Virus record (IMG/VR): IMGVR_UViG_3300032225_001769
Span: 76,612-140,611 of that record
DNA: 64,000 nucleotides
Direction: 5' to 3' (one strand)
Source of the DNA: a virus
Taxonomy: Duplodnaviria; Heunggongvirae; Uroviricota; Caudoviricetes
Below, in pieces: positions 3,272 through 60,555 of this stretch. The notes beneath the pieces are model-generated. The model was not told the origin of the DNA. It saw nothing but the letters and a program-made list of their open reading frames with translations, and did no database searches. The position numbers and the translations under genes were made by a program. Positions within the stretch are counted from its first letter, which is position 1; each line of letters begins with the position of its first letter.

Positions 3272-5164
3272 TTATCTTGTTAGGTTTCCGTTTGAATAAC
3301 TTGATGTATAATAATCTCTGGCAAACACTGTTCCAGATATCTCATCTCCAGATGCAACTACATCTCTAACCATATTTATTGAACTTTTTGAAATATTAAA
3401 ATTCAAATATAAATCCTTTAATCCTAAGATATCATTTGATTCTGGATATGCTTGAATTTCTATAATACCATTTTCAATCTCAGTAGAAGTGATATTAATC
3501 GTTGTTAATTTAATTTCACCCTTTACATAATCAACAGTTCCTGCTGATTGTGCAACAATTTGAATTTTACCATCGGCCGTTGGATTTTTCTTTACAATTG
3601 ATATAATTCCAGATAATCCATCTGAGTTTGGAGTATCTGTCAAGTATACCGTTTCAGTTTCTGTTGGAATTTTAAATCCTGTGGATTTAAAATTGTATCC
3701 TTTAGAGTTTGCATGTAATTTATTACCAAAGCATAACTCATATTGTGAATATTGATTTATTAGTGCTTTAAGATCTCTTCTAATTCTAACTTTTGTAATA
3801 TTGGATGTAATTGAAACATCTGTATTATCAATAATTTGTAAAATTTTACTATATTTGAATCTTCCTCCAAATTTATTTAAATCGGTTGATTTGGAGTATT
3901 CTGTAAGTGAACCTATTACTTTTGTTTTTAAAGATTCTTCTGTTGATACTTGATTCGAATTATAGTAGACTGAACTATCAATCTCAACATAAAGTATTTT
4001 GAGATCAATAATTTTTTGATTAATTCCAGAAATACTATATTGCTTTAATTTATTTTTAATTTGTTCTTTATTAAACGATGAAACATATGTACCATTCTTA
4101 GGTTTAATACTAATATTGACTGTACCATACTCTGGTGGATCCAATTCTTCTCCACCAACAATCGCCACAGATTCTGTATCTGGATAAATTTTCTTAATGA
4201 TTGCCTCATAATCACGGGCAGTGACTGCTCTATACTGTGATGAATAGATTCTTGGTGCAAAATACTTAATTGAATTGATCTCTTCTATTTCTGCACCATT
4301 TTGAGATGACTGACTTGTGGTGACAGTAGATCCTGTTAATACGATTGGATTTCCAGAAGAAGATTTTAATGTGGATTGAAGTGAAAATTGAGAACATCCG
4401 TTTCCTTCGGATCCGTTAGTAACGATATAATGAACCGTTATAATCGCATTATTTTCTAATTTTTTTCCAAATCGATTATCACCAAAAAGAAGTTCGTATT
4501 TTTCATCCTGAACTTCTTGTATTAAATAGATTTCTGATGTTGAATTAATATTTAAAATATTATCGACTAAGGAATATTTTACTCCTAACCCACTATCATT
4601 AATTCCTTTAATATAGACAGAAATTGTTGAAGTGTCAATATATGAATTTTCTAAGATAAATCTTTGGTCAAGAGATCCATCAACTTTAAATTGTTTTGTT
4701 AAGAATATTCCTTGATAGACATCAATTGCCTCAAAGGTTGCCGATCCATTAATTACTTTTGTTGAAATATTTTCTGGAGTACAAAATGTATATGAAGTGT
4801 CATTTGCATTTCCAACACAAACTAAACCTGCCGGAAGTGTTAATGTCGAATCATTAGTGCTTACAGATCCAGTAATTGTTACTTGCGCCTTAGAACAAGT
4901 TCTGGATCTTGGTATGTATCCAATATTTCTTGCTAGTGAGACTACATTTTCTCTGAGTGTTGCAGAATCCAAAAATGATTCATTCACAATCATATTTGAG
5001 TTGAATGCGGTAATATAGGTATTATATGCTAAAGTATCGATTAGTACTGAAAAATTAGATCCTTCAAAGTCAAAATCCGTGAATGTGGAGTTAGCACGGA
5101 GATAATCTTTGATTGATGTCTTTATTTGGTCAAAGTCTAGGTTTGTAAATTTAGTAAAAGGCAT
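3272..5164 (-). CDS. gp6: Baseplate wedge subunit gp6-like
   Basis: 630 aa; N-terminus (MPFTKFTNLDFDQIKTSIKDYL...ASLRENV..LARNIGYIPRSR) matches the T4 gp6 family; immediately downstream of gp25-like gene as in T4-like cyanophages. Confidence 0.7.
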   Translation of the reverse strand: MPFTKFTNLDFDQIKTSIKDYLRANSTFTDFDFEGSNFSVLIDTLAYNTYITAFNSNMIVNESFLDSATLRENVVSLARNIGYIPRSRTCSKAQVTITGSVSTNDSTLTLPAGLVCVGNANDTSYTFCTPENISTKVINGSATFEAIDVYQGIFLTKQFKVDGSLDQRFILENSYIDTSTISVYIKGINDSGLGVKYSLVDNILNINSTSEIYLIQEVQDEKYELLFGDNRFGKKLENNAIITVHYIVTNGSEGNGCSQFSLQSTLKSSSGNPIVLTGSTVTTSQSSQNGAEIEEINSIKYFAPRIYSSQYRAVTARDYEAIIKKIYPDTESVAIVGGEELDPPEYGTVNISIKPKNGTYVSSFNKEQIKNKLKQYSISGINQKIIDLKILYVEIDSSVYYNSNQVSTEESLKTKVIGSLTEYSKSTDLNKFGGRFKYSKILQIIDNTDVSITSNITKVRIRRDLKALINQYSQYELCFGNKLHANSKGYNFKSTGFKIPTETETVYLTDTPNSDGLSGIISIVKKNPTADGKIQIVAQSAGTVDYVKGEIKLTTINITSTEIENGIIEIQAYPESNDILGLKDLYLNFNISKSSINMVRDVVASGDEISGTVFARDYYTSSYSNGNLTR

Positions 5165-5165
5165 T

Positions 5166-5567
5166 TTATCTTGTTGCCTCTAGTAGAAATGTAAATTGTT
5201 GTGTGGGAATTTCTTGTCCAATAATATCAAATATCACAGTAACTTCAAATGAATTATTATCCGGTTGAGGATCTACCTCCACTTTTACATTATTTACTCT
5301 TGGTTCATAGTTTTCAATTATGATTTCAATTTGATTTTGCACTACAGATGCAGTACCATAGTCTACAAATTCAAATAAACTTGAACGAACATTAGATCCG
5401 AGTAATGAATTGAAAAATCTTTCAGTCGGAATTGTTTCTACCAGATTACGAATTGATCTGATAATTGCACGTTCATTCTTAAGTATTGGTAGATCCTTCG
5501 TCACCGGATGGGGTTCAAAGGATAAACTAATATCTTTAAATGATCTAGATATCCTTTGAACTGCCAT
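5166..5567 (-). CDS. gp25: Baseplate wedge subunit gp25-like (lysozyme-like fold)
   Basis: 133 aa; gp25/GPW family pattern (ISLSFEPHP..KD...I.SIRNLV.T..GER); 1-nt gap to gp6-like; NATAAATA-type motif upstream (5586-5593). Confidence 0.75.
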   Translation of the reverse strand: MAVQRISRSFKDISLSFEPHPVTKDLPILKNERAIIRSIRNLVETIPTERFFNSLLGSNVRSSLFEFVDYGTASVVQNQIEIIIENYEPRVNNVKVEVDPQPDNNSFEVTVIFDIIGQEIPTQQFTFLLEATR

Positions 5568-30248: not shown

Positions 30249-30443
30249 TCAGTTGTTAAGAGAAAATCCAACAGTTGCACCAGCACAGAATGCGTCGGTA
30301 AGTGCTTTTTTAATTGCCCAGACAGAAACATCATGAAAGTCTAAACTGTCACTGTTGCGAGTTTCCAGGGTTTCTAACCCCGGAAAATGTTTTTGAGCAA
30401 TCATTTCAAGCACTTCATTGAATTGATCCGGAAGCGTGGTCAT
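30249..30443 (-). CDS. hypothetical protein (64 aa)
   Basis: ORF track. Confidence 0.4.
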   Translation of the reverse strand: MTTLPDQFNEVLEMIAQKHFPGLETLETRNSDSLDFHDVSVWAIKKALTDAFCAGATVGFSLNN

Positions 30444-31329: not shown

Positions 31330-31405
31330 TTTTAGTATGTATATGGTAGCATCATAGCAGGAAACACGCCACCCCCGAAGGAGTAGTGTGCCAGTTCAGA
31401 AAGTG

Positions 31406-31642
31406 TCAGTCGTAAGTCTTGACTACTTCTTCTTTAAGTGGGTCTTTTTTCTTGAATTGGAAGTTCACCCATTTTTCCACTACTTTCAATTCCAAATCAT
31501 AGGAATCGTATGTATTAACAAAAGGATTAAGATGACAATCAACCCAAGTGCCAAGTACATTCATTTGAGCATAATAGTACAGAGAATAGCAAGGTTCACC
31601 ATCAGGAAGTCTGTTGCGTGAGACAATACGGTACTTCATCAT
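31406..31642 (-). CDS. hypothetical protein (78 aa)
   Basis: ORF track. Confidence 0.45.
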   Translation of the reverse strand: MMKYRIVSRNRLPDGEPCYSLYYYAQMNVLGTWVDCHLNPFVNTYDSYDLELKVVEKWVNFQFKKKDPLKEEVVKTYD

Positions 31643-32448
31643 TTATCAGTTGGGAAGAATTGCAGAGGAGTTCCGTTCACAATCAGAATTTTCTGAATAG
31701 AACCGTTCTCAAATGCAGCCTTGAGAATTTCGTTCCTTTGATATTCAAGTGATTGAGAAGATACCGTAGAAGCAAGTGCCTTGTTTTCTTCTGCTTTCAA
31801 CTGTGCAGTCTGCGTCCTGACTTGTTGTTCTTTATTCGCAGATTGTGCGGCAACCACACGATTTACGGAAGCAACTAAATCATCAGGAAGGTCTGCCTTA
31901 CCAACGATAATGGAATCAATGGTAATCTTACCTTCAAGACCGTTTTTCTTCAGAGCATCAGAAAGATTAGTTTTAATCGTGTCCTGAATTTGCTCCAAAC
32001 TTGAGTTCACAGCAAGTGCAGAGAACTCGTCTACAGATTGATTGACGGCAGAAGTAATCAGGCGAGCAATGTAACTACTCATAAGTTGAACTTGGTTACC
32101 ATCACTAATCGCGTGATTGGTCATATCATAACCAGTATAGAACTCATAGAGAGAAGTAGGATTGATACTGTAGGTTACAGTAACATCCATTTCCTTCATA
32201 ATTGTGTTATCTTTAGTCTTGGGGCGAAGGTCATTTGCCGTTACCGTAATCTTACGAGTATTGAAGACTTTAATACTACCAAAGCCATCATACTTAATTC
32301 CAGGAGTAAGAACTTCATTCTTTACCTGACCATCAAAACCTACGAATAGACCATTTTCACCAGTGCTAATTGTGGTGAATTGTCCTGCCGTAAGCACAAG
32401 AGCAAGAGCACCAACACCAACACCGATACCGACTTTTGCGAGAGACAT
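31639..32448 (-). CDS. SPFH/band-7 (prohibitin/HflC-like) membrane protein
   Basis: ~269 aa from MSLAKVGIGVG (track start 32475 is TTG); N-terminal TM helix then PHB-domain pattern (..ITVTANDLRPKTKDNTIMKEMDVTV..., ..DSIIVGKADLPDDLVASVNRVVAAQ..) and C-terminal coiled coil. Confidence 0.65.
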   Translation of the reverse strand: MSLAKVGIGVGVGALALVLTAGQFTTISTGENGLFVGFDGQVKNEVLTPGIKYDGFGSIKVFNTRKITVTANDLRPKTKDNTIMKEMDVTVTYSINPTSLYEFYTGYDMTNHAISDGNQVQLMSSYIARLITSAVNQSVDEFSALAVNSSLEQIQDTIKTNLSDALKKNGLEGKITIDSIIVGKADLPDDLVASVNRVVAAQSANKEQQVRTQTAQLKAEENKALASTVSSQSLEYQRNEILKAAFENGSIQKILIVNGTPLQFFPTDK

Positions 32449-32475
32449 AATTAAAAGGGGGGGGATAAGGAACAA

Positions 32476-32637
32476 TCAATCAGAAGTTACGCCTGCGTAT
32501 ATAAACGCAATCGCAACAAAGAGTAGAAAAGCGAGAGGAATCATCTTAAGAAAGAACAACACTGGAAGTCCTCTCAAAAGAAGAATGTAGAGAATAGATG
32601 CTACTCCAATAGTAACACCTAGAATTCTTACTATCAT
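32476..32637 (-). CDS. small two-TM membrane protein (53 aa, MIVRILGVTIGVASILYILLLRGLPVLFFLKMIPLAFLLFVAIAFIYAGVTSD)
   Basis: ATG 32635-32637, TGA 32476-32478; below track cutoff. Confidence 0.35.
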   Translation of the reverse strand: MIVRILGVTIGVASILYILLLRGLPVLFFLKMIPLAFLLFVAIAFIYAGVTSD

Positions 32638-32639
32638 AT

Positions 32640-32837
32640 TTAATTGTAAGTGCAGAGTTGAGTCATATGTCCACGTTCATAACCTTCAGTCCATTTGCCT
32701 CCTTGTGAGAGACAAGATTGCTTTGAAGGAAGAACGGAGTTTCCATTGATTACATTAAAAGCGACGGAAACAAGAATGCCCCCAATAGCACAACAAATCA
32801 AAAGTTCAATGAGAGTAAATCCTTTGTTCATTTCCAA
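32640..32837 (-). CDS. prepilin-like protein with type IV pilin N-terminal cleavage/methylation motif
   Basis: 65 aa; MEMNKG|FTLIELLICCAIGGILVSVAF = class III signal peptide (G-FTLIE) plus hydrophobic helix. Confidence 0.55.
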   Translation of the reverse strand: MEMNKGFTLIELLICCAIGGILVSVAFNVINGNSVLPSKQSCLSQGGKWTEGYERGHMTQLCTYN

Positions 32838-33037
32838 ACATCAGCGACAATGGCAATAACTACGACAATAGCAAGAATGAAAAGTGCAATCAGAATACTA
32901 ATCCAAAGAGGAGACAATACCCATACCCAAGGCCAGGTAATATGACCAGTCAGTTTGAGTCCGATAAACAGAATAGTCAACCAACCAGAGAATCCCATAC
33001 CAGAAGAGATGGTTGTGGAAGAAGATTTGCTAGACAT
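32828..33037 (-). CDS. small membrane protein (70 aa from MSSKSSSTTISSGMGFSGW...)
   Basis: track trimmed (MPYNNQVNNET is leader containing the TATAAT hexamer); Trp-rich, 2 TM. Confidence 0.45.
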   Translation of the reverse strand: MSSKSSSTTISSGMGFSGWLTILFIGLKLTGHITWPWVWVLSPLWISILIALFILAIVVVIAIVADVWK

Positions 33038-33108
33038 TGAGGTTTCGTTGTTTACTTGATTATTATAAGGCATCAGAGGGCATCTGTGAAGTGCCCCTGT
33101 GCCAGTTG

Positions 33109-33651
33109 TCAGATTGCCTCGGTCAACACTTTGGCGCCTTTGAACTTGGAACGAGCACTCTTGTTCTTGGTATCCACACCAGTCACCACAGCGATCTGAG
33201 GGGAGGAAGAACCAGTATAGAGTAGAATATCACCTTTGTTCACGGCACCAGGAGTTCCAACATAATGATTTTCACTAGTGCCCATCTTCGCACTGAAGGT
33301 ATAAGGTAGAACTTCTTCCAAGTCTTTCTTATCAAAAACATGAATTGTTCCAGTACCCTTTTCTTCAATCAAGTATTGGTTAGAACTGTTGGTGCCGATA
33401 TGAGTACCATAAGCGGTCTTACCATCAACAGTAAAAGAATAAAGAGTTTTAGTTTCGGTTGCCATTTCGTCAGTTTCTCCTTCGTAAATTTTTAGTTCGT
33501 TTCCATAAGCAGAGAATGTTTGATCAGAATGTAGATATCTACAACTGTAATTTCCTCCATTATAACCACCAGAATATCTGTAAGTAATCTTGGCAGGCTT
33601 CTTGCCGTATAGTTTGGTGACAATATCACCAACTTGAAGTTCTTGTGTCAT
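33109..33651 (-). CDS. hypothetical protein (180 aa)
   Basis: ORF track; cassette 33652-33731. Confidence 0.5.
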   Translation of the reverse strand: MTQELQVGDIVTKLYGKKPAKITYRYSGGYNGGNYSCRYLHSDQTFSAYGNELKIYEGETDEMATETKTLYSFTVDGKTAYGTHIGTNSSNQYLIEEKGTGTIHVFDKKDLEEVLPYTFSAKMGTSENHYVGTPGAVNKGDILLYTGSSSPQIAVVTGVDTKNKSARSKFKGAKVLTEAI

Positions 33652-33733: not shown

Positions 33734-33946
33734 TTATTCTAACGATTCAATTTCGGATGCAAGATTCATAAGATCATTTTTATCCAGAACAACCAAATCA
33801 TTTTGAGCATTATAATGTACAATGCTCTCAGATACAATACGAAGTGCAGAAGAAATGAGTTTATTCTCGGTGTCTGCACCACCATGGTTACGGGATTCCC
33901 AAATAGAATCCATGATTTTTTGTGCTCGTTCTGACATGAGACTCAA
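33734..33946 (-). CDS. hypothetical protein (70 aa)
   Basis: ORF track. Confidence 0.4.
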   Translation of the reverse strand: MSLMSERAQKIMDSIWESRNHGGADTENKLISSALRIVSESIVHYNAQNDLVVLDKNDLMNLASEIESLE

Positions 33947-34212
33947 AGTTTTTCAATTTCCGATAGAACGGATTCAATCTGTTCTTCGCTTTGAAATCCA
34001 AGAACATCGTCGGTGATTTCGCTCTCATAGTAAAGAGTGTAATTTCCTTTTTCTCCTTTGAGAACCGCGGCCTCATAAAGGCCTTTAGAACCACCATAGG
34101 AGTACTGGGATCGAATCACGCTAATTCCATATCCATTATTGAAGAAGTGCCTTGCCTGGACTCCATCGGACCAGGATGGATGAGGTTGAAAATTGAGATC
34201 AGAAAATTTCAT
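33943..34212 (-). CDS. hypothetical protein (89 aa)
   Basis: ORF track; ATGA overlap. Confidence 0.45.
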   Translation of the reverse strand: MKFSDLNFQPHPSWSDGVQARHFFNNGYGISVIRSQYSYGGSKGLYEAAVLKGEKGNYTLYYESEITDDVLGFQSEEQIESVLSEIEKL

Positions 34213-55041: not shown

Positions 55042-58000
55042 TTATTGAATTTTGATTAAGTAAATGAGTGCAAAGTATGGAGGTCTATTTTCATGTGCCC
55101 CATCACCTTCGGTAGTATTATTAGTGCCAACAATGCCGGTTCCATTTGCATTAATGGTAATTCCAGTTAGAGCAGTAGTTGTATCAGATTTGATTTGACT
55201 GCCAGCATTTGTCTTTACTTGGCTAATTCCTGATGCAGCACTGGAATTAATTTCCCAAAATCCGTGATTATGTCCATTATCGGTAATGTTATGAGCGTGG
55301 CCATTATCAGTGATAGTGTGAGAATGTTTTGGAGTTTGTGCCAATGTAAGAGTTACACTGTCTGATCCACCAGTATTTCCAACGGAATATGCACTTCCAG
55401 CACCAGCAATAAATCTGTCTCTTAGATCTGGAAGATTGAAAGATACTCCAGCACTTCCACCATAAGTTGTTCCAATTATATTATACAGATTCGCATAAGT
55501 TGTGGCAGATAATGATGCACCATTACAAACTGCCCAACCAGTCGGGAAGTTTAAGATTGTACCAGGCCACATAATAATACTTCCAACTGGAGTTATATTT
55601 GGAGCATCAATATAATTCGCAGTGATTCTTCCGGAACCAGAAGTTGCATCAAGATTTCCATTAATAGTTACACTGGTGGTAATTGCAACTTTAGATCCAG
55701 TTAATGCAGTTAATTTTAGATTTCCAGATGTTGTATTGATTGTATTAGCATCAGTCTGTGCTAAAGTAATATTTCCAAACGAAAGACTTGAACCGGATAA
55801 AGTTCCGTTGAAACCAATATTGCCACCAACATTAATACTACCATCAACATTTAAATTTTTACTAATCCCAACACCACCACTTACAACCAATGCACCAGTT
55901 TTGGAATTAGATGAATTTGTTGTATCGGTAATTTTTAATGGCGCATTGATATTCGTTGCATCATTAAGACTGACACCTTTGTTAAAGGTGACTGGGCCAT
56001 CAAATTGCGAAAGAACTGTACGAGAATTTCCTCCTTCAACAACCAATCTTTCTTTAATTGTAACTTCATCATAAACCACACTCAATCTTGAAGGATCCTC
56101 ACCAGTTACAGTTGGTTTTGGAATATCATAAGAAACAACCTCTCCACTTGATGCAGTTGTTTTGGTATTTCCATTGAATACGTCACCATTATTGTTCATT
56201 CCAGTATAAACAACCAGACCACAAGATCTTTCTTGTGATTGAACAAGGAAATCTTCTCTTTCTGTTAAACTTTTAACTTGTACTTGAGGAAGAGCAGTTG
56301 AATAATTTCCTGGGCCATATCCAAGATATTCAAATGTATGTCCTGATGCACGAAGAATTGCTGGTCTACGGAATTCTACAGGAATTGGTTTAATTTTTTT
56401 AATCAAAGATCCAACATTATGAGTTTCTACAACTGTGCCAAAAATACCACGCTCAACATTGATTGCATCATTGGAACCACCCACACCATACTTACTGATG
56501 GTTCTCATAATTTCTTCATCAATTTGAATATAAGATCCTAATGGGAATCTCTTTGCAATTCCAGATGCAGAAATTGGACTACTTACTCTAATTTGATTAT
56601 TAGAAGTAAATGAAACTACAGTCAAAATTTCATCATCAAATAAAGAAATAGATCTTGCACCAAGATTTTCTAATGTTGAATCTGAAGTTTTATCATTTGT
56701 AGAAAGTCCGTGCTTTAAAATGTATCCATTATTTGCAGATAAAGAAGAATTTGTAACTGCAGTAAAGGTATTAATTCCAACTTTTGCATTTACAATAAAG
56801 TCTCCAAGATTATTATTACTTGAATCAGTAACTTTAAATTTATTTCCTACAGATAATCCATGAGGAGTAGAACAGTTGAATGTAGTAATACCAGTTACAG
56901 AACTATATGAAGATGATAGAATTTGAACCGAAGGCCCAACTATAAATGCATATTGATTTGTAGTAATAACCGGATCTCCTGCAGTTCTGGCAATTCCAAT
57001 GGTGGTTGCCGAAGGAATTGATGTGATTCTATGATATGTGTCTGTTGCTATTCCAGATCCAGTAAATTGAACAACATTGCCAATTGCACTTGAGATACCA
57101 GAAATAGAAATAGTAAATCTAGCATTACCATTACCAGATCCTATTGTTGCAGAATCAAAGAATAAATCTCCTGCGGAATATCCAGAACCAGAAGAAACAA
57201 TATCTGCAGAAATTACTGCTCCACCAGATACAACAACTTTTGCCGTTGCACCCTGCCATGTACCAGTCTGAGAAGTATTTAAAAGTTTGACATTCTGATA
57301 TGTACCGGAAGTATATGCAGCACCACCAGGAAGACTGCTATAAGTTACAACCCCGGCAAGTCCATGATTTCTTGCAAAAGTAATTGTAGGATTAGAGACC
57401 GAAGATACGTCTAGTCCCACACCAAAAGATGTAAGTAATGAATCTAATGATTCTCTGGTAATACTTTTTCTTAAATCATTTGTTACAACCTGACCCAGTG
57501 GTGATCTTGTTGCAAAAGATTTTGCTGATGATGGATTATCATTAGTATTATCTCTATCCAACTGTGGATACAGATCTACAACATTTTGACTGTACTTGAG
57601 ATTTGTGAATTCTTGATCAATTACATTATTCGCATTTAAGACATAAAGATGATAGATGCCATCTTGAACTCCCTCAATGTAAGGTTTAATAACTTCATTT
57701 CTGTAAATATAAAGATTTGATTGTAAATCATTTCTTTCGAATCTGGGCGATGATATCTTTCTAAGAGTTGTATCATTCGTAAATACAGTTCCTGGAGATG
57801 TGGTTATTATGTATGTAAATGACATATCATCAACAACTGATGCAACAGTGAATGTACCATTGTATCCAAGGTCATCGGTTCCAGTAGTATTTGTACTGTC
57901 AGTTACATTTCTAATAATGACAGTATCATTAACTTGAAGATTGTGTGGTAATTCGGAAATAATCGTTACAGTACTACTACTTCTAGTACATTTTGCAATG

Positions 58001-60555
58001 AGTCTGAGATTTTTATTATAATCATAATCACTGCGAATGAGAGAGGAAAGATTAATATCAGTATCGAATCTAATTCCAGTAGTGCTAGATTCTTGAATTA
58101 CGAATCCATTTTCTGGTTTTTTACTATTTGCATATTCTTTTGGAATAACAACTCTAATCTTATAAAGTTTTTCGTCCAAACTTCTAGAATCAGAATATCT
58201 TTTGATGTATGATGGTTCTGTTCTTTGGCCTAGGGCAACTTGGTTTGTATTGATAGTATTCCAAATAGCACTATTTGCATTTGTATTAATATACCACCCA
58301 TTTGTAGTATCATATTGAACCGGATGACCAAGTTCCCCGGCAATTTTATCAGATACTCGACTTAAAATTCTAAGATTCGTTCCTTTATATACTGTAATTG
58401 GAGTACCACTAATAGCATTTGTGTAAGAAGACGCTAATTGAATTTCTGTGGAGAATAATGTTACGCTATCAGTTCTTGTGGAGTTTACTGAATCTGTAAT
58501 TGCATAATAGACAGTATTTTCTACAGTATTTTCTGGTAGGTCTCCATCATCACTTATAATAATAACCTTTTCTCCGGTATTGAGATTATGTGCTCCGATT
58601 GAAAACTTACTTGATGATGGTACTGCGGATACATATTCCTTTACACTACTTGTAGTGCCATCAGACATTAAAGTATTTGCAGAATATTCGGTGCCACTTA
58701 CATTAAGATAGATTTTTCCATTTGTTCTTGCACCAACACGATATCCTTGAGTAAGAGTTGGGGGAACATCATCGAGAGAATTAAATCCATAAAGATATAG
58801 ACGATTTTTACTTGGATTTATTGATAATGATATAGTTTTAGCAACATCAAATGGAATCCAATCAATAGCATTTTCGGTGGAGACAATTGCTCTTGGTGTG
58901 ATAATCGAAGTGATAAATGCCTTATTGTCCTTTGCAAATGCTTCTTTTTTAAATCCTGATGCACTTAAAGAAATTTGTCCAAAGTTTGAGTTTGAGTTTG
59001 TAATACTCAAATCTGAACCAGATTGAGAATCGAAATGTTTGTTATACCCAATCGCAAACACCGATACAATCTGAATAAATGCATCATTAGTTGCTTTAAT
59101 GTGACTTGATTCCCAACCATTTCTATAAATTGCCTGAGAATCTAGGTGATATACTTTACCAATATCTGTGGATGATGCTCCATTAGATAAACTTGAACCG
59201 GCAACTCTACTGATAGAAATATTATCCGAATAATCTCTATTTACTGAATTATATTTTACAAATGCACGGTCATCTTTTTGTAAGGATACTCCAGTAAATT
59301 GAGCAACAACCATACTTCTGAATCCAGATGCTTTGGATCCATCAGAGTGCATTCCATTCATACCCCAGATTGATCTCATTGAACAATTGAAGATATATGG
59401 TGATGCACCAGATACCGTATCAGTTTCAATTGTTACTGTTGCTCCAGATGAACCTGGATTTGTTGGTAAATTATTTCTTACTGATGCTAAAAGATATTTA
59501 AACTTTGTTGGGTCACTAGGATCTACGTAGGATACTTTTGTGGAAACATTATAATCACTTACCGAAACACCACGAATTTTGATTGGTGTTCCAACATTTA
59601 ATTTATGAGCAACAGTAGTTGAAACTGAAATTTCTGGAGTTGCTGTTCCACCACTACCAGATTCTATAGTTAGAATTGAAATTGGATCCGATGCAAATGC
59701 TCCAACAATTTCCCATTCTGGACGAAGTTTTGCAAATCCATCAATATTAGCAGGATATTTATCAATATCTTTAATTTCTCTACCAGATGCTAAATTGAAA
59801 GCATTTGATAGTTTACTATAGTACATATCAAGATCTGTAATATCATATGTACTTCCTTTTTTGGATACTTTATTCTTACCGTCAGCATATTCAAATATTG
59901 TTAATTTGTGATGAGAGAATGTTGGTTTTGATTGATTATTAACACTATAATCTTCTGGATCAGTGTAAACTAATCCAGATTCATCACCATCAAAAACAGA
60001 AAATTGCCAGAAATAACATGCACCAGTAACTCTAAAAATTGCAGATTTATCTACATTTGGGTCTGTTGGATTTGGTACATATTTTGGACGCAATTTAGTC
60101 TTTCTTAGATCAAGACCAACAATTGAAGTTCCTCTAGGTACAACAACTCCACCGTTTACACTATTGAACTTATAAAGAATATTATCAGACTGTGTTAAAT
60201 CAAAGTTTGATGTAAGTGTAAGTGAAAGAGTAGATTGGGCAGAAGTTATTGGACTTCCAGACAATGGTTTTGTCTTAGCACCACCATCATTATAAACAAC
60301 ATACCCAGGTCTATTGTCAACTATATGCTCACCAGGCATTAGTAGAATGGTAGTCTTTTCTACAATGTCATTATTATTTCCGAGTTGATATGAGAATCTT
60401 GCTGCTTCTAGAAGTGCTCTTTGAAGTGTTTTGAAGGGCTGAGCGAGTGAATTTCCTTGATTTGTGATTGCATCAGTTGCATCAAGATCACTCGGACTTA
60501 CATAAAGAATGCGACCTTCAGTATTCTTAATGAAATTATCTAATTTATTTAACAC
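55042..60555 (-). CDS. giant (1837 aa) tail fibre protein with C-terminal phage tail-collar domain
   Basis: C-terminus ..GSIIMWPGTILNFPTGWAVCNGASLSATTYANLYNIIGTTYGG..FNLPDLRDRFIAGAG..TPKHSHTITDNGHAHN = Phage_tail_collar pattern; AATAAATA upstream (60593-60600). Confidence 0.7.
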   Translation of the reverse strand: MLNKLDNFIKNTEGRILYVSPSDLDATDAITNQGNSLAQPFKTLQRALLEAARFSYQLGNNNDIVEKTTILLMPGEHIVDNRPGYVVYNDGGAKTKPLSGSPITSAQSTLSLTLTSNFDLTQSDNILYKFNSVNGGVVVPRGTSIVGLDLRKTKLRPKYVPNPTDPNVDKSAIFRVTGACYFWQFSVFDGDESGLVYTDPEDYSVNNQSKPTFSHHKLTIFEYADGKNKVSKKGSTYDITDLDMYYSKLSNAFNLASGREIKDIDKYPANIDGFAKLRPEWEIVGAFASDPISILTIESGSGGTATPEISVSTTVAHKLNVGTPIKIRGVSVSDYNVSTKVSYVDPSDPTKFKYLLASVRNNLPTNPGSSGATVTIETDTVSGASPYIFNCSMRSIWGMNGMHSDGSKASGFRSMVVAQFTGVSLQKDDRAFVKYNSVNRDYSDNISISRVAGSSLSNGASSTDIGKVYHLDSQAIYRNGWESSHIKATNDAFIQIVSVFAIGYNKHFDSQSGSDLSITNSNSNFGQISLSASGFKKEAFAKDNKAFITSIITPRAIVSTENAIDWIPFDVAKTISLSINPSKNRLYLYGFNSLDDVPPTLTQGYRVGARTNGKIYLNVSGTEYSANTLMSDGTTSSVKEYVSAVPSSSKFSIGAHNLNTGEKVIIISDDGDLPENTVENTVYYAITDSVNSTRTDSVTLFSTEIQLASSYTNAISGTPITVYKGTNLRILSRVSDKIAGELGHPVQYDTTNGWYINTNANSAIWNTINTNQVALGQRTEPSYIKRYSDSRSLDEKLYKIRVVIPKEYANSKKPENGFVIQESSTTGIRFDTDINLSSLIRSDYDYNKNLRLIAKCTRSSSTVTIISELPHNLQVNDTVIIRNVTDSTNTTGTDDLGYNGTFTVASVVDDMSFTYIITTSPGTVFTNDTTLRKISSPRFERNDLQSNLYIYRNEVIKPYIEGVQDGIYHLYVLNANNVIDQEFTNLKYSQNVVDLYPQLDRDNTNDNPSSAKSFATRSPLGQVVTNDLRKSITRESLDSLLTSFGVGLDVSSVSNPTITFARNHGLAGVVTYSSLPGGAAYTSGTYQNVKLLNTSQTGTWQGATAKVVVSGGAVISADIVSSGSGYSAGDLFFDSATIGSGNGNARFTISISGISSAIGNVVQFTGSGIATDTYHRITSIPSATTIGIARTAGDPVITTNQYAFIVGPSVQILSSSYSSVTGITTFNCSTPHGLSVGNKFKVTDSSNNNLGDFIVNAKVGINTFTAVTNSSLSANNGYILKHGLSTNDKTSDSTLENLGARSISLFDDEILTVVSFTSNNQIRVSSPISASGIAKRFPLGSYIQIDEEIMRTISKYGVGGSNDAINVERGIFGTVVETHNVGSLIKKIKPIPVEFRRPAILRASGHTFEYLGYGPGNYSTALPQVQVKSLTEREDFLVQSQERSCGLVVYTGMNNNGDVFNGNTKTTASSGEVVSYDIPKPTVTGEDPSRLSVVYDEVTIKERLVVEGGNSRTVLSQFDGPVTFNKGVSLNDATNINAPLKITDTTNSSNSKTGALVVSGGVGISKNLNVDGSINVGGNIGFNGTLSGSSLSFGNITLAQTDANTINTTSGNLKLTALTGSKVAITTSVTINGNLDATSGSGRITANYIDAPNITPVGSIIMWPGTILNFPTGWAVCNGASLSATTYANLYNIIGTTYGGSAGVSFNLPDLRDRFIAGAGSAYSVGNTGGSDSVTLTLAQTPKHSHTITDNGHAHNITDNGHNHGFWEINSSAASGISQVKTNAGSQIKSDTTTALTGITINANGTGIVGTNNTTEGDGAHENRPPYFALIYLIKIQ

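Follow-up and report, generated by a model that had tools for sequence, protein, structure and literature searches.

Phage-encoded pilin mimics have been described in Pseudomonas, where the P-FimU protein of F10-like prophages enters the pilus and blocks phages that use the pilus tip, and where lytic phages carry truncated PilA-like proteins of about 60 residues (Sztanko et al., Cell Rep 2026, PMC12952977). In Aeromonas phage 44RR2.8t, ORF097c, with an N-terminal methylation motif, and ORF098c, with an SPFH domain, were listed as Pfam matches without comment (Nolan et al. 2006, PMC1524935). Cyanomyophages attach along the pili of Synechococcus, and in mixed populations the cells with pili are lost more rapidly (10.1101/2025.09.20.677514). 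Here, a 64,000-nucleotide stretch of a tailed-phage genome (IMG/VR record IMGVR_UViG_3300032225_001769, positions 76,612 to 140,611; hereafter the window) was analysed for a cluster of four membrane-protein genes, including one for a small prepilin-type protein, termed the mini-pilin, and one for an SPFH protein. The window belongs to a T4-like, Kyanoviridae-like cyanomyovirus related to S-CREM1, B3, and B23. The cluster is real and correctly annotated, and is a good experimental lead rather than a four-gene system. Tentatively, and with somewhat less than even confidence, we propose that the mini-pilin is a decoy or poison subunit, processed by the host peptidase, that enters the type IV pilus pathway and alters the pili to which cyanophages bind.

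The mini-pilin and its family

The four genes are consecutive and tightly packed on the minus strand. The initial annotation had placed four co-directional open reading frames (ORFs) here with transmembrane (TM) segments in each product, and both statements hold, the latter by hydropathy. In 5' to 3' order, the genes are as follows:

32828..33073, minus strand: Trp-rich small membrane protein; longest ORF 81 amino acids, likely product 69 amino acids from ATG 33037
32640..32837, minus strand: mini-pilin; 65 amino acids from TTG 32837, more likely 63 amino acids from ATG 32831
32476..32637, minus strand: 53-amino-acid hairpin with two TM segments by hydropathy, joined by a very short LRG loop
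31639..32448, minus strand: SPFH/Band 7 protein of 269 amino acids from ATG 32448

The mini-pilin exceeds the curated cut-offs of the Pfam N_methyl profile PF07963 (34.9 bits, cut-off 21.2) and of TIGR02532 (29.6 bits, cut-off 16.3), upholding a prepilin-type signal that had been put forward beforehand as open to refutation. Across the six frames of the window, the class III motif is unique to this protein. The N-terminus, M(E)MNKG followed by FTLIELLICCAIGGILVSVAF, consists of a short basic leader up to Gly(-1), then Phe(+1), Glu(+5), and about 20 hydrophobic residues. Cleavage is predicted at the slash in G/FTLIELL, ahead of an alpha1N helix and a 35-residue head, and the mature protein would comprise 59 residues. 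The gene and its leader stand as first described, whereas the 65-amino-acid start does not: TTG 32837 was rejected because ATG 32831 overlaps the upstream stop codon as ATGA and because gene callers chose the ATG start for P0001, a protein 97% identical to the window mini-pilin. The product is thus likely to begin MNKG/FTLIELL and to span 63 amino acids.

An alignment of 34 family sequences, 52-97% identical to the window mini-pilin, revealed that G-1, T+2, E+5, and L+6 are each at least 90% conserved behind a basic leader of variable length, and G-1 and E+5 reach at least 90% conservation in a set of 28 distinct genes as well. The class III signal is under selection; a plain membrane anchor would not be expected to have a charged residue within its TM helix. 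The alignment also contains a glycine at about +13/+14, the place of Gly14 in canonical type IVa pilins. The head is almost invariant (LPSKQSC-x2-GGKW(T/S)EG-x3-G-x-(M/I)TQLCTYN), with Cys42 and Cys62 present in 34/34 sequences in the manner of a D-region-like disulfide loop, and the two cysteines probably form a bond. Over 28 distinct genes, the ratio of nonsynonymous to synonymous substitution (dN/dS; Nei-Gojobori) is 0.44 in alpha1N and 0.20 in the head, which is under purifying selection. Together, the invariant cysteines and the ratio of 0.20 are as expected of a functional domain that is oxidised in the periplasm or outside the cell.

An AlphaFold2 model (predicted local distance difference test, pLDDT, 76) contains helices at 9-30 and 39-44 and a beta-hairpin at 48-63, so that in place of a four-stranded antiparallel sheet the 35 residues after alpha1N are modelled as a short helix and a single beta-hairpin. 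Because this head is short and has no structural match, the protein is regarded as a truncated, or mini, pilin. A profile search of the PDB recovered only pilin alpha1N helices, the best being Geobacter PilA-N of 61-69 amino acids, and NCBIfam pilin and pseudopilin equivalogs scored below their cut-offs and matched residues 1-40 only, leaving similarity to host subunits confined to alpha1N. Judged by its sequence, the mini-pilin has every feature of a prepilin and lacks the normal pilin head.

A search of 5.8 billion proteins recovered 57 homologous clusters of 54-106 amino acids, and a hidden Markov model scan of 1.84 billion cluster representatives found only about 14 at E<=1e-10, below which generic pilins matched by the N-terminus only. 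The family is confined to viral or metagenomic contigs, and every inspected contig with a member looks like phage, including those that encode distant relatives with the C-x2-GG-x-W-(T/S)-E-G...C head. No relatives were found in 185,579 bacterial and archaeal species genomes, and no host origin for the head came to light; the family is likewise absent from the isolates among 50,697 phage records searched by tblastn. Short ORFs can be open by chance, and hydrophobic sequences yield weak profile matches, but the probability that these are chance frames or a fortuitous motif match is negligible, as curated cut-offs are exceeded, 57 homologous clusters have dN/dS well below 1, and synteny is conserved.

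Two relatives are unusual in structure. P0002 (L019 6001-6228) has an 11-residue internal tandem duplication in alpha1N (FTLIELLICCAIGG-IELLICCAIGG), and P0062 (130 amino acids) carries the conserved head behind an unrelated 90-residue N-terminal region without a prepilin signal, which may be a fusion or an artefact of gene calling or frameshift.

The hairpin-SPFH pair and its linkage to the mini-pilin

The SPFH protein matches Pfam Band_7 (PF01145; E=8e-19, 68.8 bits, cut-off 23.6) and belongs to phrog_200 (E=7e-28), a family labelled 'lipoprotein'. That label was rejected here because the window protein has no lipobox Cys. Its AlphaFold2 model (pLDDT only 67) comprises a TM helix at 4-18, the SPFH domain, and long C-terminal helices at 189-247. 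Foldseek aligned the model over nearly its full length with HflK/C (9cz2, 7vhq, 7wi3) and prohibitin (8rrh) as top matches, as well as with erlin, stomatin, and QmcA (E 7e-11 to 2e-6, 15-18% identity), at probability 1.00 for HflK/C, prohibitin, erlin, and stomatin. The profile, model, and fold matches thus agree with the band-7 protein, TM anchor, and C-terminal coiled coil of the initial annotation, and the failure of the Band_7 profile that had been named beforehand as refuting did not occur. This resemblance was reached by fold search alone: phmmer against PDB sequences returned nothing, and in NCBIfam no HflK, HflC, or other family was matched at E<=1, so that membership in the HflK or HflC equivalogs is not indicated. 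The anchor is uncleaved and preceded by a single Lys, from which a periplasmic SPFH domain is predicted; the domain and its coiled-coil helices would then face the periplasm, like those of HflK/C. Alignment A2 of SPFH homologues proved too divergent for locus searches and structure prediction, and the closer sets A3 and A4 were used. ATG 32448 is kept in about 45 related loci, on which basis a start at TTG 32475 was rejected. Full-text searches of PMC and bioRxiv found no paper assigning a function to a phage SPFH protein.

The hairpin gene lies directly 5' of the SPFH gene in 37/45 SPFH-anchored loci by tblastn and in 6 more in which divergent copies were read by eye; they are near-obligate partners (at least 43/45 loci), an arrangement also found in S-CREM1 and B23. 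The hairpin, whose two TM segments agree with the first description, has no match in Pfam, PHROG, NCBIfam, or PADLOC; for the OB-fold of NfeD (PF01957) in particular, it is too short and without a Pfam match at E<=1. By analogy with bacterial NfeD-SPFH pairs, the SPFH protein may assemble into an oligomeric cage that surrounds its hairpin partner on the periplasmic side of the inner membrane. Alternatively, the hairpin could be a class II-type holin or antiholin, with the SPFH protein regulating lysis timing and the mini-pilin incidental. Its small size and two TM segments would suit such a role, as would the position of its counterpart in phage Vi01 in a lysis-gene neighbourhood. However, the window hairpin ends in GVTSD rather than in a charged C-terminal tail, its loop is only 3 residues long, neither the window nor the cyanophage loci have an endolysin gene next to it, and the strict pairing with SPFH is closer to NfeD-SPFH operons, all of which make a holin very improbable.

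The linkage of this pair to the mini-pilin is much looser. The mini-pilin is present in 12/45 SPFH-anchored loci, and of the 39 non-identical mini-pilin loci whose downstream sequence is long enough, 15 contain an SPFH gene 0-1.6 kb 3' of the mini-pilin, while the other 24 have none within 6-kb flanks. On one contig (L046/L092), the two genes are about 7.7 kb apart. No mini-pilin was detected in S-CREM1, B3, or B23, all of which have the hairpin and SPFH genes, or in the SPFH-bearing phages Vi01, BUCT-ZZ01, and BCSR5. These locus counts indicate that the hairpin and SPFH genes are a fixed pair and that the four genes are not one unit. The pilin and SPFH modules are independent, and the mini-pilin and the Trp-rich gene are accessory, often landing in a variable slot just 5' of the hairpin-SPFH pair. 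The joint action of four genes suggested at first, with the SPFH protein scaffolding the pilin, is accordingly left without support.

Under this scaffold idea the genes would form one machine, in which the SPFH cage with its hairpin gathers the mini-pilin, or else the pilus/PilD platform of the host, into a membrane microdomain. Three observations would favour it. Wherever mini-pilin and SPFH genes are co-located in one locus, the mini-pilin is 5', on the same strand and within 0-1.6 kb; the TM-gene run in the window is non-random, since TM-like segments occur in 11/141 non-overlapping minus-strand ORFs and the four cluster genes make the only run (P=0.0027 for a run of at least four, permutation); and SPFH and mini-pilin genes with unrelated pilin heads are adjacent in two genera of Aeromonas Straboviridae. 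Against this stand the locus counts above, the separated genes of L046/L092, the six phages with SPFH and no detectable mini-pilin, and phage Aeh1, in which the two genes are 24 ORFs apart (PMC1524935). A single machine is therefore improbable.

The product of the Trp-rich gene is another small membrane protein, independent of the two modules. It belongs to phrog_1374 (E=2.9e-16) and, as first described, is Trp-rich with two TM segments (6 Trp and 2 hydrophobic segments in 69 amino acids). Its homologues lie 5' of the mini-pilin in some loci only, and that of S-CREM1 is 9 kb from the SPFH gene. It matches no Pfam family at cut-off, and an assignment to DUF7736 was rejected both for this reason and because the homologue in L006 (4888-5025) is not the DUF7736-annotated gene of that locus (5308-5547).

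Interference with host pili and its alternatives

In the proposed sequence of events, the mini-pilin would insert in the membrane and be cut at G/F by the host prepilin peptidase PilD, after which the mature protein could be recruited, by way of Glu5 and alpha1N, to the type IV pilus assembly platform of the host. It might then cap, thin, or re-surface the pilus as a decoy or poison subunit, or titrate PilD. The infected cell would stop reeling in further pilus-binding cyanophages, which would amount to superinfection exclusion and would spare progeny from being wasted on infected cells. Such a benefit is plausible because cyanomyophages bind Synechococcus pili and phage FimU mimics block pilus-tip phages, and the conservation of the head implies a single specific contact, either in the periplasm or with the pilus. 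Interference with pili and superinfection exclusion had been suggested in the initial annotation and is retained as the best reading, now with a precedent, though detached from the presumed rarity of such genes and from a joint action of the four.

Several points weigh against it. Cleavage by PilD and incorporation into pili are predicted from motifs, and PilD and pili in the host are assumed from the hosts of relatives (Synechococcus); no peptidase-like multi-TM gene is present in the 64-kb window. The head is unmatched, as Foldseek of the mini-pilin model against the PDB and BFVD returned nothing below E=0.5. A pure poison or PilD-titrating subunit would need no such conserved head. With the ATG start, the leader is short (MNKG), yet Aeromonas phage 44RR has MKG. 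Early expression is suggested by a single consensus promoter match:

33062..33090, minus strand: candidate sigma70-type promoter, TTCACA-17-TATAAT, with 11/12 consensus matches, in the gap after the 180-amino-acid gene described below

This site is a consensus match only, and sites of its type are in total no more numerous than in shuffled sequence. Identical TTCACA/TATAAT hexamers lie 50-58 nt 5' of the mini-pilin in two related loci (L022, L023), and a comparable site is missing from most others; given this inconsistent conservation, early expression can be no more than presumed. Finally, the adjacency of mini-pilin and SPFH genes in two distant phage families points to a possible functional link that the proposed role does not include. 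This adjacency, in the T4-like lineages of freshwater Kyanoviridae-like phages and Aeromonas Straboviridae with unrelated pilin heads, may mark an undescribed two-part phage system, in which a periplasm-facing SPFH cage would surround the host assembly platform for pili or type II secretion (or else PilD), with the mini-pilin as the subunit that would target or plug it. The recurrence in Aeromonas is the main evidence for such a link, and when weighed against the loose linkage in cyanophages and the distant genes of Aeh1, it leaves a two-part system as a slender prospect.

The main alternative keeps the mini-pilin in the envelope and removes it from the pilus. The prepilin signal would serve only for export and anchoring, and the mini-pilin would be a membrane-tethered periplasmic effector whose disulfide head acts on a non-pilus envelope target, such as peptidoglycan-associated or lysis-timing components, possibly alongside the SPFH cage. 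The greater conservation of the head than of the helix (dN/dS 0.20 vs 0.44) would follow naturally, and the gene neighbourhoods are suggestive: distant family members adjoin RlpA-like DPBB_1 and SLH-domain genes, the Vi01 hairpin and SPFH genes stand beside a LysM 'endolysin', a 'superinfection exclusion' gene, and a spanin, and the Aeromonas SPFH/mini-pilin pair is near rI. However, G-1, F+1, and E+5 are conserved although an anchor would not need them, and no endolysin or holin was called beside the window cluster. We regard this explanation as possible but rather unlikely.

If the proposed interference is correct, this pilin decoy, carried by abundant cyanomyophages of fresh water, would be the first known case of a viral gene directed at the pili of picocyanobacteria, and the principle of phage pilin mimicry would reach beyond Pseudomonas prophages to lytic phages that infect primary producers. 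The type IV pili of picocyanobacteria have effects on buoyancy and grazing and, as a 2025 preprint reports (10.1101/2025.09.20.677514), on encounter with cyanophages. If a two-part system were true instead, the infected cell would lose every function of its type IV filaments at once. The mini-pilin is easily tested because it is small (59 mature residues) and offers mutational handles in G-1, E5, and the two cysteines. In addition, the hairpin-SPFH pair, which is widespread in large phages (phrog_200), is shown here as a conserved two-gene unit, with an HflK/C-like predicted topology.

Genomic setting and comparison with known systems

The window carries T4-like myovirus genes, including a gp6-like baseplate wedge, an RNA ligase, a Dda-type helicase, and long tail fibres. 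With Megablast, a 4-kb segment had no match in the 50,697 phage records, and the SPFH protein has relatives in Kyanoviridae (72% identity to SCREM1_131 of Synechococcus phage S-CREM1 and 68% to the B3 and B23 homologues). Compared with S-CREM1, the window has additional sequence at about 33734 to 32640, placed between the homologue of SCREM1_129 (33943-34212) and that of the hairpin. The cluster is a membrane-protein island in a plastic region rich in small, mostly uncharacterised genes, and among eight neighbouring window ORFs searched against Pfam, DUF6900 alone was matched. Further features in and around the cluster are as follows:

33109..33651, minus strand: 180-amino-acid protein, phrog_36463, no Pfam match
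32449..32475, minus strand: spacer rich in pyrimidines, TTGTTCCTTATCCCCCCCCTTTTAATT, including a C8 run; separates the stop codon of the hairpin gene from the SPFH ATG
31406..31642, minus strand: 78-amino-acid soluble protein, its ATG overlapping the SPFH stop (ATGA)
31369..31386, minus strand: terminator-like hairpin 3' of the 78-amino-acid gene, a pattern match only, with a weak T-tail
30249..30443, minus strand: 64-amino-acid protein with a strong DUF6900 match in Pfam (E=2.4e-23)

The candidate promoter overlaps the first codons of the 81-amino-acid Trp-rich ORF, so translation of this gene probably starts at ATG 33037, the start chosen at the outset. In the spacer, the core ttgttc(c/t)tta is kept in many related loci while the C-run differs in length (C8+C7 in L065, C6 in L006), and no purine-rich ribosome-binding site precedes the SPFH ATG. 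The overlap of the 78-amino-acid gene with the SPFH stop suggests that the two are probably on one transcript, a possible end of which is the terminator-like hairpin. Homologues of the 78-amino-acid protein lie directly 3' of SPFH in many related loci; the protein has no family match in Pfam, PHROG, or NCBIfam. PADLOC gave no match for any of the six proteins.

The 180-amino-acid gene is directly 5' of the mini-pilin in many loci, with a stop/start overlap in L009-L012; it is linked to the mini-pilin about as often as SPFH is, and S-CRM01 has a homologue with 33% identity. Farther away, at 55042-60555 on the minus strand, are a tail fibre protein of 1837 amino acids (phrog_529), then a 498-amino-acid tail protein and a Dda-type helicase. 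Genes for RlpA-like DPBB_1 proteins (lytic transglycosylase fold) and SLH-domain proteins adjoin or lie near some mini-pilin relatives (L126 4515-6317; L016/L017 ~3880-4740; L009-L011 ~520-1730), which hints at an envelope-directed gene neighbourhood. In two loci, Xre_MbcA_ParS_C antitoxin-like genes occur 1.5-3 kb 5' of the mini-pilin (L005 3379-3639, L006 2034-2312), recalling the antitoxin genes of S-CREM1 highlighted in the title of PMC9964418.

The SPFH protein resembles HflK/C and prohibitin cage proteins in its full-length fold, its single N-terminal TM segment, and, for HflK/C, an SPFH domain predicted on the trans side. With 15-18% identity and no NCBIfam match, the likeness is one of topology and fold only. 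The hairpin is comparable to the partners in NfeD-SPFH operons (QmcA-YbbJ, 8z5g), many of which have a gene for a small membrane partner directly 5'. Unlike NfeD, it has no OB-fold, and gene order and TM hairpin are analogous features. The phrog_200 family, to which the window SPFH protein belongs, also includes SPFH proteins of Vi01-like, Aeromonas, and other large phages. In three large phages unrelated to the window, a gene for a two-TM hairpin of 58-69 amino acids is directly 5' of SPFH:

L062 3684-4684: hairpin and SPFH genes of Vi01
L060 3733-4741: hairpin and SPFH genes of BUCT-ZZ01
L061 3521-4729: hairpin and SPFH genes of BCSR5

The SPFH homologues of these three phages carry a lipobox Cys and are thus exported, whereas in the window protein, as in closely related cyanophage proteins, the TM anchor is uncleaved. 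In Vi01, the immediate neighbours of the pair are genes with the annotations endolysin (a LysM protein) and superinfection exclusion, together with an Rz-like spanin.

For the mini-pilin, the most similar arrangement is in Aeromonas phages 44RR2.8t, 31, and 25, in which a small prepilin with two head cysteines (phrog_11263) is encoded beside a phrog_200 SPFH gene in a T4-like genome:

L057 9385-11472 (44RR2.8t), also L058 and L059: ORF099c, SPFH, mini-pilin, and ORF096c, between tk and rI

ORF097c of 44RR2.8t begins MKG/FTLIELM and has 72 amino acids with two cysteines, and ORF098c is the phrog_200 member. Two genera of Straboviridae share the order SPFH, mini-pilin, ORF096c, and ORF096c has a lipobox-like LSGC and a Ser/Gly-rich tail. 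The Aeromonas arrangement differs from that of the window in that the pilin head is unrelated, SPFH comes first with a soluble protein (ORF099c) encoded 5' of it, and phage family and host are different.

Geobacter PilA-N (61 residues; 2m7g, 6vk9) shares the mature length of about 60 residues and is the best alpha1N profile match in the PDB; unlike the mini-pilin, it is almost all helix, pairs with PilA-C, and is a structural pilin of a cell. P-FimU and the truncated PilA mimics are, like the mini-pilin, phage products with a prepilin signal and a pilin alpha1N, for which exclusion of pilus-dependent phages is proposed, and the truncated PilA class equals the mini-pilin in size and also occurs in virulent phages. 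Sequence similarity to these mimics is limited to the N-terminal helix: P-FimU has a full FimU fold and the truncated PilA class has no head, whereas the mini-pilin has a conserved putative disulfide mini-head and presumably a cyanobacterial host. Prepilin-like genes of cyanophages were the subject of no paper recovered in a full-text search. Nevertheless, peptides of this type are less of a rarity among tailed phages than was first supposed, since at least six PHROG families match by motif and the Aeromonas mini-pilin of 72 amino acids was listed in 2006. Together with the pilin-mimic experiments of 2026, these records place the mini-pilin in a kind of gene that is already known.

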